From sequence record PP886228: 64,000 nt of DNA; one strand, 5' to 3'. This document shows, piece after piece, positions 17,837 to 64,000 of this stretch. Position 1 is the stretch's first letter. Every line of letters starts with the position of its first letter. Below the pieces are notes generated by a model. The model was not told the origin of the DNA, ran no database searches, and was given only the letters and a program-made list of their open reading frames with translations. Both the position numbers and the translations under genes were made by a program. Origin of the DNA: Escherichia phage vB_EcoM_D4.

Positions 17837-18136
17837 TTAATCTGCCAACCTTAAATTAAAATTAACACCAAATTTTTCACATACTTCCAACATAAACTTA
17901 AGAGAAACATTACCAGTGAGATTGATTATGTTGGATACACGAGACTGAGAGATACCACAAATTTTAGCAACTTGCTCTTGAGAAAGGCCTCTGGATTTAA
18001 TCTCTCTCTTAAAACGATGTGCAACGAAGTCTCTCATTTCGTCTACATCCATTGGACAAATATAACTCTCCATTTCAGCCTCTCTGTCAGCCTCCCAATC
18101 ATCTTGTGGAGCATAAGGGTCAAAAACCTCATTCAT
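17837..18136 (-). CDS. helix-turn-helix DNA-binding protein
   Basis: QEQVAKICGISQSRVSNI resembles XRE-type HTH; start set to internal ATG 18136 with RBS. Confidence 0.4.
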   Translation of the reverse strand: MNEVFDPYAPQDDWEADREAEMESYICPMDVDEMRDFVAHRFKREIKSRGLSQEQVAKICGISQSRVSNIINLTGNVSLKFMLEVCEKFGVNFNLRLAD

Positions 18137-18341
18137 CTTTCTTCTTCCGTTTGCGTGAAGTGTCAATCAATGAATCTATGTTTGTAGCTCTGACCTTTTC
18201 ACGTTCATCGTTAAGATAATCATCAAGAGCCTTTTCAATCTGTGAATCATCTTGACAGATAACTGTAAAGACTGTAAAGCCGTCTATATCATCAATTATC
18301 TTACCATAACCGCTTCTGGGATGTAACTTTTTCAGAGCCAT
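18129..18341 (-). CDS. hypothetical protein
   Basis: 70-aa ORF. Confidence 0.3.
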   Translation of the reverse strand: MALKKLHPRSGYGKIIDDIDGFTVFTVICQDDSQIEKALDDYLNDEREKVRATNIDSLIDTSRKRKKKDE

Positions 18342-61608: not shown

Positions 61609-61668
61609 CTTGCAATCAACTATCAAAACAAGTAAATTACTAATCAACGGGAGGGATAACCCCCCCCC
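61609..61668 (+). promoter_or_regulatory. class-A promoter plus leader hairpin with poly-C
   Basis: TTGCAA, 17 bp, TAAATT, atcaacgggaggg ataa cccccccc. Confidence 0.5.
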
Positions 61669-61815
61669 ACTAAATAAAGTCCTTAAACTAGGAGATTCAA
61701 AAAATGAACAAGTTCAAAGCTATCAACTTCATTCGTTCCCCCCCCACTAAATAAAGTCCTTAAACTAGGAGATTCAAAAAATGAACAAGTTCAAAGCTAT
61801 CAACTTCATTCGTTC
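61661..61815 (+). repeat. tandem duplication (78 + 77 bp) of leader-RBS-start codon segment
   Basis: Segment from poly-C tract through ...atgaacaagttcaaagctatcaacttcattcgttc occurs twice back to back; copies differ by one C. Confidence 0.8.
61704..61754 (+). pseudogene. truncated 16-codon duplicate of array gene 12 start
   Basis: MNKFKAINFIRSPPTK then stop; created by the duplication. Confidence 0.5.
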
Positions 61816-62640: not shown

Positions 62641-62672
62641 ATTACTAATCAACGGGGAGGGATAACCTCCCC
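62615..62672 (+). promoter_or_regulatory. class-A promoter plus leader hairpin
   Basis: TTGCAA, 17 bp, TAAATT, atcaacggggaggg ataa cctcccc. Confidence 0.5.
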
Positions 62673-62706
62673 ACTAAGTAAAGTCCTTAAACTAGGAGAT
62701 TCAAAA

Positions 62707-62955
62707 ATGGCAACTATCCGCGCAACTGTCAATGCTTATGGCTGTTATACTCTGGACGTTAAATTTGATATTGGTGGAACTGATGAGTGTTTTTCATTAG
62801 TGAAGACAGTTATCAAGCAAGTTATCCCAGATTATAACCCTACTGATGACTTCTGGAAAGATGCTGTAAAAGAGGCATTAAACGACGAGCATCACTATCA
62901 TTACTGGGGTGACTTGATTATCTCACTGTACTACAATAAACAAGGTTACAACTAA
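62707..62955 (+). CDS. array gene 14, hypothetical
   Basis: 82 aa. Confidence 0.45.
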   Translation: MATIRATVNAYGCYTLDVKFDIGGTDECFSLVKTVIKQVIPDYNPTDDFWKDAVKEALNDEHHYHYWGDLIISLYYNKQGYN

Positions 62956-62965
62956 TCGCCGCAAC

Positions 62966-63017
62966 GGGGCTAAATAGCCCCAGATACCTTCACAGCCCCA
63001 TTTAAGGGGCTTTTTTA
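62966..63017 (+). terminator. double hairpin terminator closing the array
   Basis: ggggctaaatagcccc then agcccca ttt aaggggct followed by TTTTTT. Confidence 0.6.
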
Positions 63018-63369
63018 CGTCTATGTAATAGCCTCTATACAATCCCTTTCCTTTCCTTTCCAGAATCTTACTAGACCTTAAAAGCAATAACTCTATAGTC
63101 TACTCTATAATCTCTTATCAAATCAACTTAAATAAAAGCCCATAACCCGAAAGGGAAGGGTAACCGTTTAAACGCTCTATAAAGCTCTATAACAGCCTTA
63201 TCAACCTAACTTAAGGGATTGCATTAACTCACCCTAAAAAGCCCTTTATAAAGCTTCCTAGAGCCTTAAAAGAATCTTATAAGGGTGTAAGCTTTATTAT
63301 CTCGTTAGTTCCTTGTGAATAACTAGAAAGGGCTTGTTAGTGTCTTAAAAGTATGTTATAGGGGCTATA

Positions 63370-63413
63370 AAGTTACTTCAAAGTTACGTAAAAGTGGTTT
63401 AAAAGTTACGTAA
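63370..63413. repeat. repeated palindromic GTTACGTAA motif
   Basis: aagttac x3, with two full copies of aagttacgtaaa 22 bp apart. Confidence 0.5.
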
Positions 63414-63433
63414 ATGCTAGCCCCCTTAACATT

Positions 63434-63515
63434 TTCTTAACAATTTCTTAACAACCCCTACATAGTTATGCTTGTTAGCAACTTGTTAGCCCCTTGTTAA
63501 ATCTCTGTTAAAACC
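63434..63515. repeat. convergent TGTTAAG-family iterons
   Basis: ttcttaaca x2 (inverted orientation) facing cttgttagc, cttgttagc, cttgttaaa, ctgttaaaa. Confidence 0.55.
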
Positions 63516-63715
63516 ACGTAAAAGCCTTGTAAGAGTCTTTAGCATAGCCTTTAAAGCCCCTGTAAAGCCCTATAAATAGCTTTCTGTATAGTTGGGGTGT
63601 AATTACTAGGGAGAGACTAAAAAGAGCTTATAAGGAGCTATAGAAAGCTTTTAAGAGGGCTATTTAAAAGGTCACTAAGAAAGGAAAGGGAACGATAAGA
63701 AAAGAGATAGTGACC

Positions 63716-64000
63716 ATGTTAATAGCTTGTTAAAAAGATTAAACACTTGTTAGGAACTTGTTAATTATCTTAACAAAATAACTCTTTAAAATTAACTTGT
63801 TAGCTCTTGTTAGTCATCTGTTAAGATTCTATAAAGACCATGTAGCAACTGTTAAGAAACTGTTACACCCTTGTTAGTTCTGTTAAGAATCTGTTAAGAC
63901 CTCTGAAGAGATGTTAAGAGGTTGTAAGAACTGTTAAGAGATTGTTAAGGATATTTTAAAATTCTGCAAAGGGGATGTTACAGGGATGTTAAGGGCTACC
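63716..64000 (+). repeat. direct iteron array, consensus YTGTTAAG at about 10-11 bp spacing (runs to window end)
   Basis: About 20 copies: cttgttag, cttgttaat, tctgttaag, actgttaag, gatgttaag, attgttaag, gatgttac ... Confidence 0.7.

Follow-up and report, generated by a model that had tools for sequence, protein, structure and literature searches.

What are the short repeats that crowd the last few hundred base pairs of this phage DNA for, and which protein might read them? The stretch analyzed here, called the window below, is 64,000 nucleotides long, and a first-pass annotation made from its sequence described the final part as a non-coding region packed with TGTTA-type iterons at helical-turn spacing, a candidate origin or a packaging or partition site. 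Its non-coding status is borne out: 63088-64000 contains no open reading frame (ORF) of at least 30 amino acids, and the longest stop-free stretch in any frame of 62956-64000 is 48 amino acids.

The terminal repeat of a Felix O1-like phage

Up to the end of the record, the sequence agrees at 100% identity with PP892526.1, the genome of Escherichia phage vB_EcoM_I14.1 (Felixounavirus); the window represents the rightmost 64 kb of that genome, with position 64000 at the deposited right end. Positions 63420-64000 are exactly identical to record positions 1-581, forming a 581-bp direct terminal repeat (DTR) whose right copy is record 88779-89359. The DTR of vB_EcoM_I14.1 was called by PhageTerm (PMC11737134), on which the PP892526.1 deposit is based. 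It is virtually certain that 63420-64000 is the right-hand DTR copy of a Felix O1-like virulent phage, and both of its edges are virion DNA ends. The array had been taken to be cut by the window edge and to be worth following beyond 64000, but that edge is the deposited physical genome end; the last copy ends 7 bp before it, and there is no continuation.

In Pr103Blw, the homologous 581 bp are annotated as a DTR, and in NBEco005 the DTR is 651 bp long, with edges identical to those of the 581-bp repeat; both records begin and finish at the same bases as vB_EcoM_I14.1. Ro111lw has a DTR of 613 bp, and the end of the ECP2307 record aligns to the same left DTR boundary (query position 465). The DTR of UAB_Phi87 was measured as 608 bp by Bal31 digestion and run-off sequencing, compared with a prediction of 614 bp based on the conserved edges. 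The DTR of Erwinia phage M7, 444 bp long, is laid out in the same way, and its ends adjoin the same elements, within 2-3 nt of the homologous positions; the right end lies 2 nt from the AGATATACA element that the right-edge block here also has. End positions differ by 2-6 nt between methods. Relatives that were assembled as circles carry a single repeat copy between the flanking genes, which fits one repeat per concatemer junction. One sequence thus stands at the two ends of the genome, and independent isolates have fixed, non-permuted ends, in line with the PhageTerm class of these phages, the T7-like short DTR. A headful pac site was rejected because the ends are fixed and the repeat is exact. 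The link to packaging first suggested holds to this extent: the region is the DTR, at whose edges the virion DNA terminates. The suggestion of a partition site found no support, as no ParB/ParR- or ParA/ParM-type genes flank the region and the phage is virulent.

In the concatemer, the repeat sits within a transcriptionally silent junction of 1.7 kb (1.67 kb) between two converging, terminator-closed gene blocks, with terminators detected on both sides in a terminator scan. The site homologous to the terminator listed in Table 1 is annotated as such in Moogle, and the matched region of AYO145A carries annotated terminators. A promoter scan of the junction found no sigma-70-type promoter-like site matching more than 10 of 12 positions, and the weak promoter-like matches that are present arise from the TTAACA units themselves. 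An Rfam scan of the left-end 4 kb, including the left DTR copy, gave only noise.

At each DTR edge there is an outward-pointing copy of TGTTAAGGG, in sequence conserved across three genera. Read inward, both ends start G..GCCC(CC)TTAACAT, so that a unit points outward 5-7 bp from each end, and a 37-nt imperfect inverted repeat (I1) joins the two edges. The right-edge block runs on into AAGCAGATATACA in the concatemer, and the sequence across this boundary, CTGTTAAGGGCTACC followed by AAGCAGATATACA, is nearly invariant across the aligned phages. On the other side, the tandem repeats at 63369..63419 abut the left DTR edge, their last 18 nt (AAAGTTACGTAAATGCTA) being nearly invariant as well; the 22-bp unit is present in 1 to 6 copies in different phages, with the edge-adjoining copy conserved, and two of the three genomic TTACGTAA sites lie here. 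Two readings of the cut-site symmetry fit the edges: GCTA(G/C)C in direct orientation at each of them, shifted by 2 nt, or an inverted ATGTTAAGGG.

Table 1. Features of the right genome end, in window coordinates
Feature	Position	Strand	Description
Rho-independent terminator	62994..63019	+	Stem and T-run; ends the rightward gene block and bounds the non-coding junction on its left
Right-unique non-coding spacer	63020..63368		Second ~11-bp-phased unit family, GCYYTWTAAAG-like: CTCTATAAAG, CCTTAAAAG, CTTATAAGG; direct-repeat families D5, D7, D8, D9, D13; TAA periodicity 11.0 bp
DnaA-box match TTATTCACA	63314-63322	minus	Within the spacer 63020..63368
11/22-bp repeats AAAGTTACGTAAA	63369..63419		Tandem repeats, family D6; palindrome TTACGTAA at 63384-63391 and 63406-63413
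Right copy of the 581-bp DTR	63420..64000		Identity with record 1-581
Three inverted TGTTAAG units	63424..63454	-	11-bp spacing; pointing to the left end; D10, D20
Four direct CTTGTTA(A/G) units	63471..63512	+	Exactly 11 bp apart; D1; ArcA boxes 10.6-18.2 bits
Central ~200 bp without exact TGTTA core	63513..63714		Degenerate TGTAA units, GCYYTWTAAAG-type units; I2, I7, D9
Cluster C	63715..63776	+	Direct pairs 63717/63728 and 63748/63759, inverted unit 63771-63775; D3, D4; ArcA boxes 17.9 and 15.2 bits
Cluster D	63796..63994	+	13 exact and ~6 degenerate units in 200 bp; D2, D3; seven ArcA boxes 13.9-15.5 bits
Right-edge block	63975..64000	+	Last unit pair ATGTTACAGGGATGTTAAGG, then GCTACC, then genome end; ArcA box 13.9 bits

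Phasing and conservation of the TGTTA units

The segment 63420-64000 contains 25 copies of TGTTA (21 on the plus strand and 4 on the minus strand), compared with a mean of 1.86 and a maximum of 7 in other 581-bp segments (Poisson p about 6e-20). For CTTGTTA, the 1.67-kb junction has 13 occurrences where 0.14 would be expected. Eleven of the 20 spacings between neighbors are exactly 11 bp, the remainder being mostly 9, 10, 20, 31, or 33 bp. All 21 direct copies share a common phase with a period of 10.45 bp (R = 0.72; R = 0.90 for 63798-63987), and in the 17-copy subset at 63717-63987 R reaches 0.82, compared with 0.63 for the 99th percentile of the null computed for that subset, in agreement with the helical-turn, same-face spacing originally described. 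The units are organized as 19-nt pairs and 31-bp triplets, and the 19-nt pair occurs seven times (family D3). Cluster D averages 10.5 bp per unit and contains four 31-bp super-units of three units each (63817-63950); all of its units point to the right end.

Two details of the first-pass annotation need amending. The strict 8-mer (C/A/T)TGTTA(A/G)G, of which about 20 copies had been counted in 63716-64000, occurs there nine times in direct and once in inverted orientation; the figure of about 20 matches the 5-bp core (17 + 1) plus degenerate in-phase units. Similarly, the two inverted copies said to face four direct ones are actually three (63427-63453), and they point away from the four direct copies rather than converging with them.

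In the alignment, core columns are 96.8% conserved, compared with 83.8% for other DTR columns, and in the other genera the values are 93.4% and 72.0% (permutation test, p < 1e-4); the conserved footprint is TGTTA plus the next base. The unit positions of cluster D are conserved in Felixounavirus, Mooglevirus, and Suspvirus, and the central segment, which includes a purine-rich tract at 63678-63706, is also conserved across genera. Copy number varies between phages by whole 11-bp units: Si3 and NS7 have five copies at the position of the inverted trio, and EC6 has two additional 11-bp units at the position of the four direct units. The TGTTA motif is kept in Erwinia phage M7, although the remaining junction barely aligns. 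The array is very probably a selected protein-binding array, and the original description of a cis-acting, non-coding array of protein-binding type, with units on one helix face, is supported.

Candidate binding proteins

ArcA-P binds two to five direct repeats with the core TGTTA, set 11 bp (or 22 bp) apart from center to center, and does so cooperatively and with bending of the DNA (PMC4173790; PMC3798270). Its sites normally overlap promoters, and consensus-like multi-repeat sites bind at low ArcA-P levels (PMC4173790). The ArcA-P footprint on plasmid R1, TGTTAAGTAAATGTTAA (PMC7303359), is the phage unit pair, and the 19 nt of that pair are the size of an ArcA box. At the sequence level, the array has the grammar of sites for OmpR/PhoB-type winged-helix response regulators, which would bind it head-to-tail, and its match to the host ArcA-P direct-repeat element extends to core, spacing, and matrix score, with at least two TGTTA direct repeats at 11-bp spacing and scores in the E. 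coli range. For scoring, an ArcA matrix was rebuilt from 115 of the 128 published E. coli boxes, so its scores are approximate; the thresholds were at least 9 bits, the range of ChIP-defined E. coli boxes, and at least 15 bits for the genome scan. The DTR contains 14 boxes of at least 9 bits, six of them of at least 15 bits, and 1000 dinucleotide shuffles gave means of 1.2 and 0.07, respectively. The other 87.1 kb of the genome hold six boxes of at least 15 bits. In the DTRs of ten other Ounavirinae and of Erwinia phage M7, the counts are 14-19 at the 9-bit threshold and 6-10 at the 15-bit threshold. The inverted trio forms two overlapping box matches (63426-63443 and 63437-63454), which at 23.1 and 22.9 bits score above the best of the 115 E. 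coli training boxes (22.0).

E. coli ArcA-P operators (icdA, astC, acs) and those of F-like plasmids (R1, the F PY promoter) share with the array the TGTTA(A) core, the direct repeats, the 11-bp or 22-bp spacing, and the pairs, and phage boxes score 9-23 bits on the E. coli matrix, a likeness at the level of sequence. However, natural operators have two to five repeats that overlap promoters, whereas here about 25 units per 581 bp lie inside a terminal repeat; in place of a regulated sigma-70 promoter there are weak promoter matches only, with no downstream gene, between converging terminators. In addition, unit position 8 is a G in 52% of the phage units, compared with only 8% of the E. coli ArcA elements, and this may point to a different or additional binder. 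Two other host regulators were set aside: the sites of PmrA/BasR, YTTAAK-N5-YTTAAK (opposite strand), and of PhoP, TGTTTA, both show an invariant mismatch when compared with the phage core. Repeats that look just like ArcA binding sites raise the possibility that the phage enlists a host protein at its DNA ends, and we lean toward host ArcA-P as the binder of the array. No link between ArcA and Felix O1-like phages was found in the literature searched. ArcA-P is low under aerobic conditions, and these phages were isolated and grown aerobically, so an essential role for ArcA is unlikely.

The binder could instead be phage encoded, a cryptic small terminase or end-recognition factor that would recognize TGTTAAG and oligomerize along the array, with the likeness to ArcA sites being coincidence or mimicry. 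Array units abut both cut sites, the G at position 8 that is rare in ArcA elements is enriched in the E. coli phages, and GTTAAGA is the commonest 7-mer in Erwinia phage M7; furthermore, most phage genes have no known function, and phased short repeats flank the cuts in P1 pac, SPP1 pac, and lambda cosB. We nevertheless consider a phage-encoded binder somewhat unlikely. Neither a small terminase, sought in PHROGs, Pfam, and PDB and with direct probes, nor an OmpR/PhoB-type protein, sought with probe sequences, was recognized in the phage, and the authors of the Felix O1 study reported the large terminase subunit only (PMC3185647). The HTH_3 protein at 17837-18166, named as a possible binder in the first-pass annotation, is a real Xre-type helix-turn-helix (HTH) protein, but neither for it nor for a 66-amino-acid acidic ORF upstream of TerL could a homologue be detected in Erwinia phages, which have the same array. 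For that ORF, and for other candidates, PHROGs, Pfam, and PDB gave no evidence. Also rejected was a 244-amino-acid DUF7217 protein near the large terminase, which is acidic and coiled-coil-like and has no HTH. Finally, a core that is invariant across barely aligning genera would be easier to reconcile with a slowly evolving host protein than with a phage protein and its site evolving together.

Unrelated tandem repeats, together with small clusters beside promoters, made up most of what a scan of IMG/VR for four TGTTA copies at 11-bp spacing returned, and the scan was of no use for identifying a shared binder. Two iteron-like contigs were followed up, one of them a T5-like phage in which the cluster adjoins the terminase genes. 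The whole genome of the phage studied here contains neither Chi nor GATC.

Possible roles of the array at the genome ends

We propose, as a finely balanced judgment, that the array is a terminal-repeat protein platform, probably loaded with host ArcA-P, that would organize the genome ends; that end formation or packaging is its main role is suggested only tentatively. ArcA-P, or else an unrecognized phage protein of the same grammar, would load cooperatively along one helix face, and the bound protein would form a bent or wrapped filament with its units directed outward to both repeat edges, three units pointing to the left cut, all others to the right cut, and the last unit lying 5-7 bp from each end. 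Such a nucleoprotein platform would mark and shape the concatemer junction, where the terminase would make two fixed cuts in the conserved edge sequences. The repeat would then be duplicated by strand displacement, as in T7-type phages with short DTRs, and the platform would leave both ends of incoming DNA protein coated. We infer a role of the array in cutting from geometry only, and the conserved edge sequences alone might direct the terminase.

Several known systems resemble parts of this scheme. The short DTRs of T7, T3, and SP6 are likewise identical repeats at both ends, with fixed ends in conserved sequence and one repeat per junction, and the T7 repeat is reportedly flanked by arrays of 7-bp repeats (SRL and SRR), as described by Dunn and Studier in 1983. 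In contrast to the T7-type repeats, which are 160-260 bp long, the repeat here is 560-650 bp, and the short repeats lie inside it and are helically phased; moreover, the present phage is a myovirus with a Mu-like portal, has no phage RNA polymerase and no recognizable small terminase, and has a large terminase in a separate clade. In P1 pac, seven TGATCA/G hexamers flank the cut and IHF takes part; SPP1 has pacL and pacR, and lambda cosB combines R sites with IHF. These sites, like the scheme proposed here, combine short repeats one helical turn apart around a terminase cut with bent or wrapped DNA and a potential part for an architectural protein of the host. However, they are headful or cohesive-end systems with a known small terminase, whereas here two cuts bound an exact repeat, the units are many more, and no IHF consensus site was found in the junction. 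A precedent for a mobile element that uses ArcA-P as a structural, DNA-organizing cofactor rather than as a transcription factor is the Xer site psi of pSC101, where ArcA-P and PepA are said to be architectural factors (Colloms et al., 1998), although psi has a single ArcA site beside a recombination core and is unrelated to phage ends or packaging. In its most far-reaching form, which we think unlikely, the proposal would be that the Ounavirinae have made both genome ends by far the largest known ArcA-site array, that ArcA-P serves as a host-supplied recognition or architectural subunit for a terminase without a small subunit, that end formation, end protection, or the start of replication is redox dependent, and that phage DNA drains ArcA-P from the cell as it multiplies.

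The array might also be, as suggested first, the iteron part of a replication origin, in which a bound phage initiator, DnaA, or ArcA-P would control the opening of AT-rich DNA next to it. Of all 30-bp windows in the 89-kb genome, the three least stable (record positions 652, 1018, and 1136) lie in unique DNA just beside the left DTR, with TGTTA pairs among them, and the palindrome CTATATAG is found only in the non-coding DNA beyond the left DTR, DNA that is conserved across genera. The junction contains two perfect DnaA-box matches, compared with 0.17 expected. T7 has an origin adjoining its left repeat, and initiation at oriC is blocked in vitro when ArcA-P binds there. The lambda ori, the P4 ori and crr iterons, and oriC, with its oppositely oriented, 11-bp-spaced arrays of low-affinity DnaA sites, resemble the array in their helically phased direct repeats in two opposed orientations, which in those origins guide cooperative, filament-like loading beside easily melted DNA. 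On the other hand, the least stable DNA lies 70-560 bp beyond the left repeat, outside 63420-64000, so that here the array is inside the terminal repeat and the AT-rich DNA is outside; other very unstable sites occur in the divergent early region, near record 44 and 51.5 kb, and the DnaA-box match at junction position 64507 is not conserved outside Felixounavirus in the alignment. Classical iterons are 17-22 bp long and few, compared with a core of 5-6 bp present about 25 times here, and no cognate initiator gene is nearby, as the small genes flanking the region yielded no domains and hence no DNA-binding or replication domain. GC skew had been suggested as a guide to the origin, but the GC and AT skews of the whole reconstructed genome follow the coding strand only and give no origin signal. 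We consider this origin reading of the array quite unlikely.

We hold it to be similarly improbable that ArcA-P binds the array for a purpose other than packaging, whether as a decoy that would soak up ArcA-P while phage DNA multiplies and so free respiratory carbon metabolism from ArcA repression, as a switch that depends on oxygen, or as protection of the ends from RecBCD. The 25 units of the DTR far exceed the two to five of natural ArcA sites, and the binding of consensus-like multi-repeat sites at low ArcA-P levels (PMC4173790) would suit such functions. The hosts are gut facultative anaerobes, and relatives of the phage encode aerobic and anaerobic ribonucleotide reductases and NAD-synthesis genes. 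Near the left end, a high-scoring box begins 7 bp in, and near the right end another stops 8 bp short; the relative Bas63 was noted in one study to have no RecBCD inhibitor. A pure decoy, however, would need neither the fixed placement of units against both cuts nor the outward polarity and the strict helical phase. Least credible of all are neutral, minisatellite-like expansions in dispensable non-coding DNA without any binding function, since, although copy number varies by unit and unrelated TGTTA-containing 11-bp tandem repeats are common in viral contigs, here the spacers differ between units while the cores are invariant, the cores are conserved far above their flanks across genera, units keep their positions and orientations, the array is still present in Erwinia phage M7, where little of the junction aligns, and the whole array keeps a 10.45-bp phase.

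The DTR of these phages was already known; for the ArcA-like array, no description was found in the literature searched, and in the deposited annotations inspected the region carries no label more specific than repeat_region. Felix O1-like phages, in which no small terminase has come to light, rank with the phages most often used for diagnostics and biocontrol of Salmonella and E. coli. If the terminal repeat is indeed an ArcA-P platform, it would provide the first example of a two-component response regulator incorporated into the biology of phage genome ends, and packaging, end protection, or replication would be linked to oxygen availability in the gut. The performance of these phages would then depend on conditions, aerobic during production and anaerobic in use, a point of relevance to therapy and biocontrol, and the array would offer a naturally occurring ArcA decoy of high capacity, as well as a defined cis element with which to engineer these phages. 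Whichever protein binds it, the array defines the cis-acting anatomy of the DTR in about 260 sequenced phages.

The terminal repeat and its edges

The last 1101 bases of the 89,359-bp genome of phage vB_EcoM_I14.1 (PP892526.1) match 62900-64000 at 100% in a blastn search of GenBank phages, and the same segment matches about 260 related Ounavirinae records. The window corresponds to record bases 25360-89359 and ends on the right where the deposited linear genome does; its last 581 bases are repeated without change at the start of the record. In phage Pr103Blw the homologous 581 bp carry the annotation of a short direct terminal repeat, the genome of NBEco005, with a 651-bp repeat, has its ends at the same bases, and the repeat of Ro111lw is 613 bp long. 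The UAB_Phi87 repeat was measured as 608 bp by Bal31 digestion and run-off sequencing, and in its record the conserved edge sequences lie 614 bp apart. Erwinia phage M7 belongs to another genus, and its repeat, at 444 bp, is laid out in the same way. The identity with the record start, the match to the genome end, and the homologous repeats in relatives identify these 581 bp as the right terminal repeat, not an array cut by the window edge, as the first-pass annotation had supposed. On both testable features the repeat belongs to the short, exact direct terminal repeats, which are already known in the Felix O1-like genus. The earlier packaging reading was right in substance, in that the repeat forms the genome ends; the feature is of neither the headful pac class nor the partition class, and the partition proposal is unsupported.

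In circularly assembled relatives, the repeat sits in a 1.6- to 1.8-kb noncoding junction between converging gene blocks, each closed by a terminator. When the junctions of twelve phages from Felixounavirus, Mooglevirus, and Suspvirus were aligned, both repeat edges fell within nearly invariant blocks. Read inward, either end opens with G..GCCC(CC)TTAACAT, and an outward-pointing array unit (core TGTTA) therefore lies 5-7 bp from each end. Of the units, three are directed toward the left end and the rest toward the right. The DNA immediately outside the left edge carries a 22-bp repeat, in one to six copies, with the palindrome TTACGTAA. The ends of M7 differ from the homologous positions by no more than 2-3 nt, and in its repeat inverted units dominate the left half and direct units the right half.

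Small insertions have been gained or lost in the junctions of wV8, VpaE1, Si3, NS7, Moogle, and M719. VpaE1 carries a hairpin-like insert of about 22 bp (core TTGGTAACAATACCAAT), which wV8 has elsewhere in inverted form (ATTGGTATTGTTACCAAT); VpaE1 and Moogle share a 24-bp insert, ATGAGGTAGATTCTACCGAATCAA, some 15 bp past the right repeat edge, and a 33-bp unit with GGGTTACTGTTAAGTAACAC is present in zero to two copies. A 77-bp segment made up of a terminator tail, a ribosome-binding site, and the first 11 codons of ORF 61781 is perfectly duplicated in tandem, and its intergenic cassette recurs before ORF 62707.

Two observations concern the genome as a whole. Where about 180 copies of GATC would be expected in the window, counting both strands, there are none, and the full 89,359-bp genome also lacks it; avoidance of this Dam/MboI-type site is extreme. 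Chi (GCTGGTGG) is missing too. The taxonomy of PP892526.1 reads Demerecviridae/Tequintavirus, its sequence is that of a Felixounavirus, and the announcement describes I14.1 as a Felixounavirus and I14, from the same library, as a Tequintavirus; the lineage label looks swapped.

Features of the genome ends and related sites (window positions unless marked; record, PP892526.1; a slash marks a repeat edge)
Feature	Position	Sequence or detail
Right terminal repeat	63420-64000	581 bp
Left terminal repeat	record 1-581	581 bp
Left repeat edge		AAAGTTACGTAAATGCTA/GCCCCCTTAACAT, nearly invariant block in alignment
Right repeat edge		CTGTTAAGGGCTACC/AAGCAGATATACA, nearly invariant block in alignment
Boxes above best training box	63426-63454	23.1 and 22.9 bits
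17-copy subset	63717-63987	R = 0.82
Phased stretch	63798-63987	R = 0.90
31-bp triplet	63817-63950	four tandem copies
GCYYTWTAAAG-like units	63020-63368, 63513-63714	TGTTA-free parts of the junction
ATCTGTT	63500-63510, 63816-63826, 63889-63899	
77-bp tandem duplication	61661-61815	
Recurring cassette	62650-62706	CCCCACTAARTAAAGTCCTTAAACTAGGAGATTCAAAAA
DNA after left repeat (L003, genome left end)	582-1210	unique, noncoding
Least stable 30-bp windows of genome	record 652, 1018, 1136	
DnaA-box match	record 1088	TTATTCACA
TGTTAA clusters, viral contigs	L029, L069, L085, L126, L132; L112 9730-10000	11-bp spacing
TGTTAA cluster, IMG/VR contig	L113 5230-5350	adjoins terminase genes

The phased array

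An ORF search bore out the earlier view that the region is noncoding. The repeat contains 25 copies of TGTTA, 21 of them direct and 4 inverted; other 581-bp windows have a mean of 1.86 and a maximum of 7. The junction has 13 copies of CTTGTTA, versus 0.14 expected. Eleven of the 20 neighbor distances are exactly 11 bp, and occasional steps of 9, 10, and 20 bp keep the whole set at a single 10.45-bp phase (R = 0.72 over 514 bp), which places the units on one face of B-DNA, as the first-pass annotation had proposed from the helical-turn spacing. The 99th-percentile null for the 17-copy subset is 0.63. A repeat finder returned two higher-order units, a 19-nt pair of units in seven copies and the 31-bp triplet in four. 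The array is a real and strongly nonrandom feature. Its original description as about 20 copies of an 8-mer fits the 5-bp core, the strict 8-mer occurring only 10 times in 63716-64000, and the two inverted copies thought to converge on four direct ones are three inverted units, at the left edge and back to back with the four.

A second family of units phased at about 11 bp fills the TGTTA-free parts of the junction, often as dyad pairs (e.g., AAGCCCTTTATAAAGCTT), and may represent a second binding motif. Several units also read ATCTGTT, the class II pause signal of T7 RNA polymerase at the concatemer junction of T7; the likeness is probably coincidental, since the phage has no such polymerase.

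Candidate binders and conservation of the array

An invariant 5-bp core in direct 11-bp repeats arranged in pairs is, judged by sequence, the grammar of OmpR/PhoB-family response regulators, and it fits the host oxygen-sensing regulator ArcA closely. Sites of phosphorylated ArcA (ArcA-P) consist of two to five direct repeats of a 10-bp element, ATGTTAAAAA, with core TGTTA, spaced 11 or 22 bp center to center and bound cooperatively with bending (PMC4173790; PMC3798270). With a position weight matrix rebuilt from 115 of the published E. coli ArcA boxes, the repeat yielded 14 boxes in the score range of real ArcA sites, 6 of them above 15 bits, the genome-scan cutoff of the ArcA-box authors; two exceed the best training box (22.0 bits). 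In the other 87.1 kb of the genome six boxes reach 15 bits, a density difference of about 150-fold, and dinucleotide shuffles of the repeat gave 1.2 boxes in the real-site range and 0.07 of at least 15 bits. All of ten other Ounavirinae repeats and M7 have 14-19 boxes in the real-site range and 6-10 of at least 15 bits. By the sequence-level definition the array thus qualifies as an ArcA multi-repeat site, with predicted occupancy. ArcA is presumably present in every known host genus of the subfamily Ounavirinae. Arc systems have been reported in Klebsiella, Dickeya, Vibrio, and Pasteurellaceae.

Small TGTTAA clusters also occur in unrelated viral contigs, one of them T5-like by terminase similarity, and others carry four AATGTTAAG units upstream of genes; these may represent additional sites of the ArcA type, or analogous ones, in other phages.

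We lean, by a modest degree, toward ArcA-P as the binder of the units. A cryptic phage protein is a less probable binder, with perhaps a minority share of our confidence. Counting against ArcA, G occupies unit position 8 in 52% of phage units versus 8% of E. coli elements, the array lacks the promoter that is the usual context of ArcA sites, the phages grow well aerobically, and we found no literature linking ArcA to Felix O1-like phages. As for phage candidates, the flanking genes encode no DNA-binding domain, no small terminase is recognizable in the phage (the Felix O1 genome paper likewise noted none), and no OmpR/PhoB-type protein was detectable with the probe sequences used. The helix-turn-helix protein suggested earlier is a genuine Xre-type protein; it has no detectable homologue in Erwinia phages and was rejected as the binder.

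Core columns of the repeat are 96.8% conserved, versus 83.8% for the rest, and in other genera 93.4% versus 72.0%; core conservation gave p < 1e-4 in a permutation test. The footprint of conservation covers TGTTA and the next base, with flanks at background. Given these conserved cores, length differences between phages of whole 11-bp units, and a motif kept in M7 though blastn aligns only 127 bp of its junction, it is very unlikely that the array arose by neutral minisatellite expansion.

Neighboring DNA and possible roles

The origin function first proposed for the array is unsupported, and some features of iteron origins are absent from it. GC skew was uninformative. The best origin evidence lies outside the array, in the highly conserved (across genera) DNA that follows the left repeat and continues the window in the concatemer. 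The three copies of the palindrome CTATATAG all fall within this DNA, as do further TGTTA pairs, the conserved element TCACATATGATGGTGACCC, the least stable windows, and one of the two DnaA-box matches in the junction; the stretch is a candidate for an origin or for a second cluster of cis elements.

We infer that a response-regulator-type protein would load cooperatively along a single face of the DNA, bending or wrapping it, and that the resulting complex would place the large terminase for two fixed cuts, the repeat then being copied by strand displacement, as T7-type phages do. Roles that are possible alongside terminase positioning are protection of the ends of incoming DNA, modulation that depends on oxygen, titration of ArcA-P, and control of an origin in the adjacent DNA. 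The Felix O1 genome paper and the other literature searched mention neither the internal phased array nor its ArcA-element identity. That host ArcA-P should be recruited to both genome ends is the most interesting prediction of this analysis and is directly testable.
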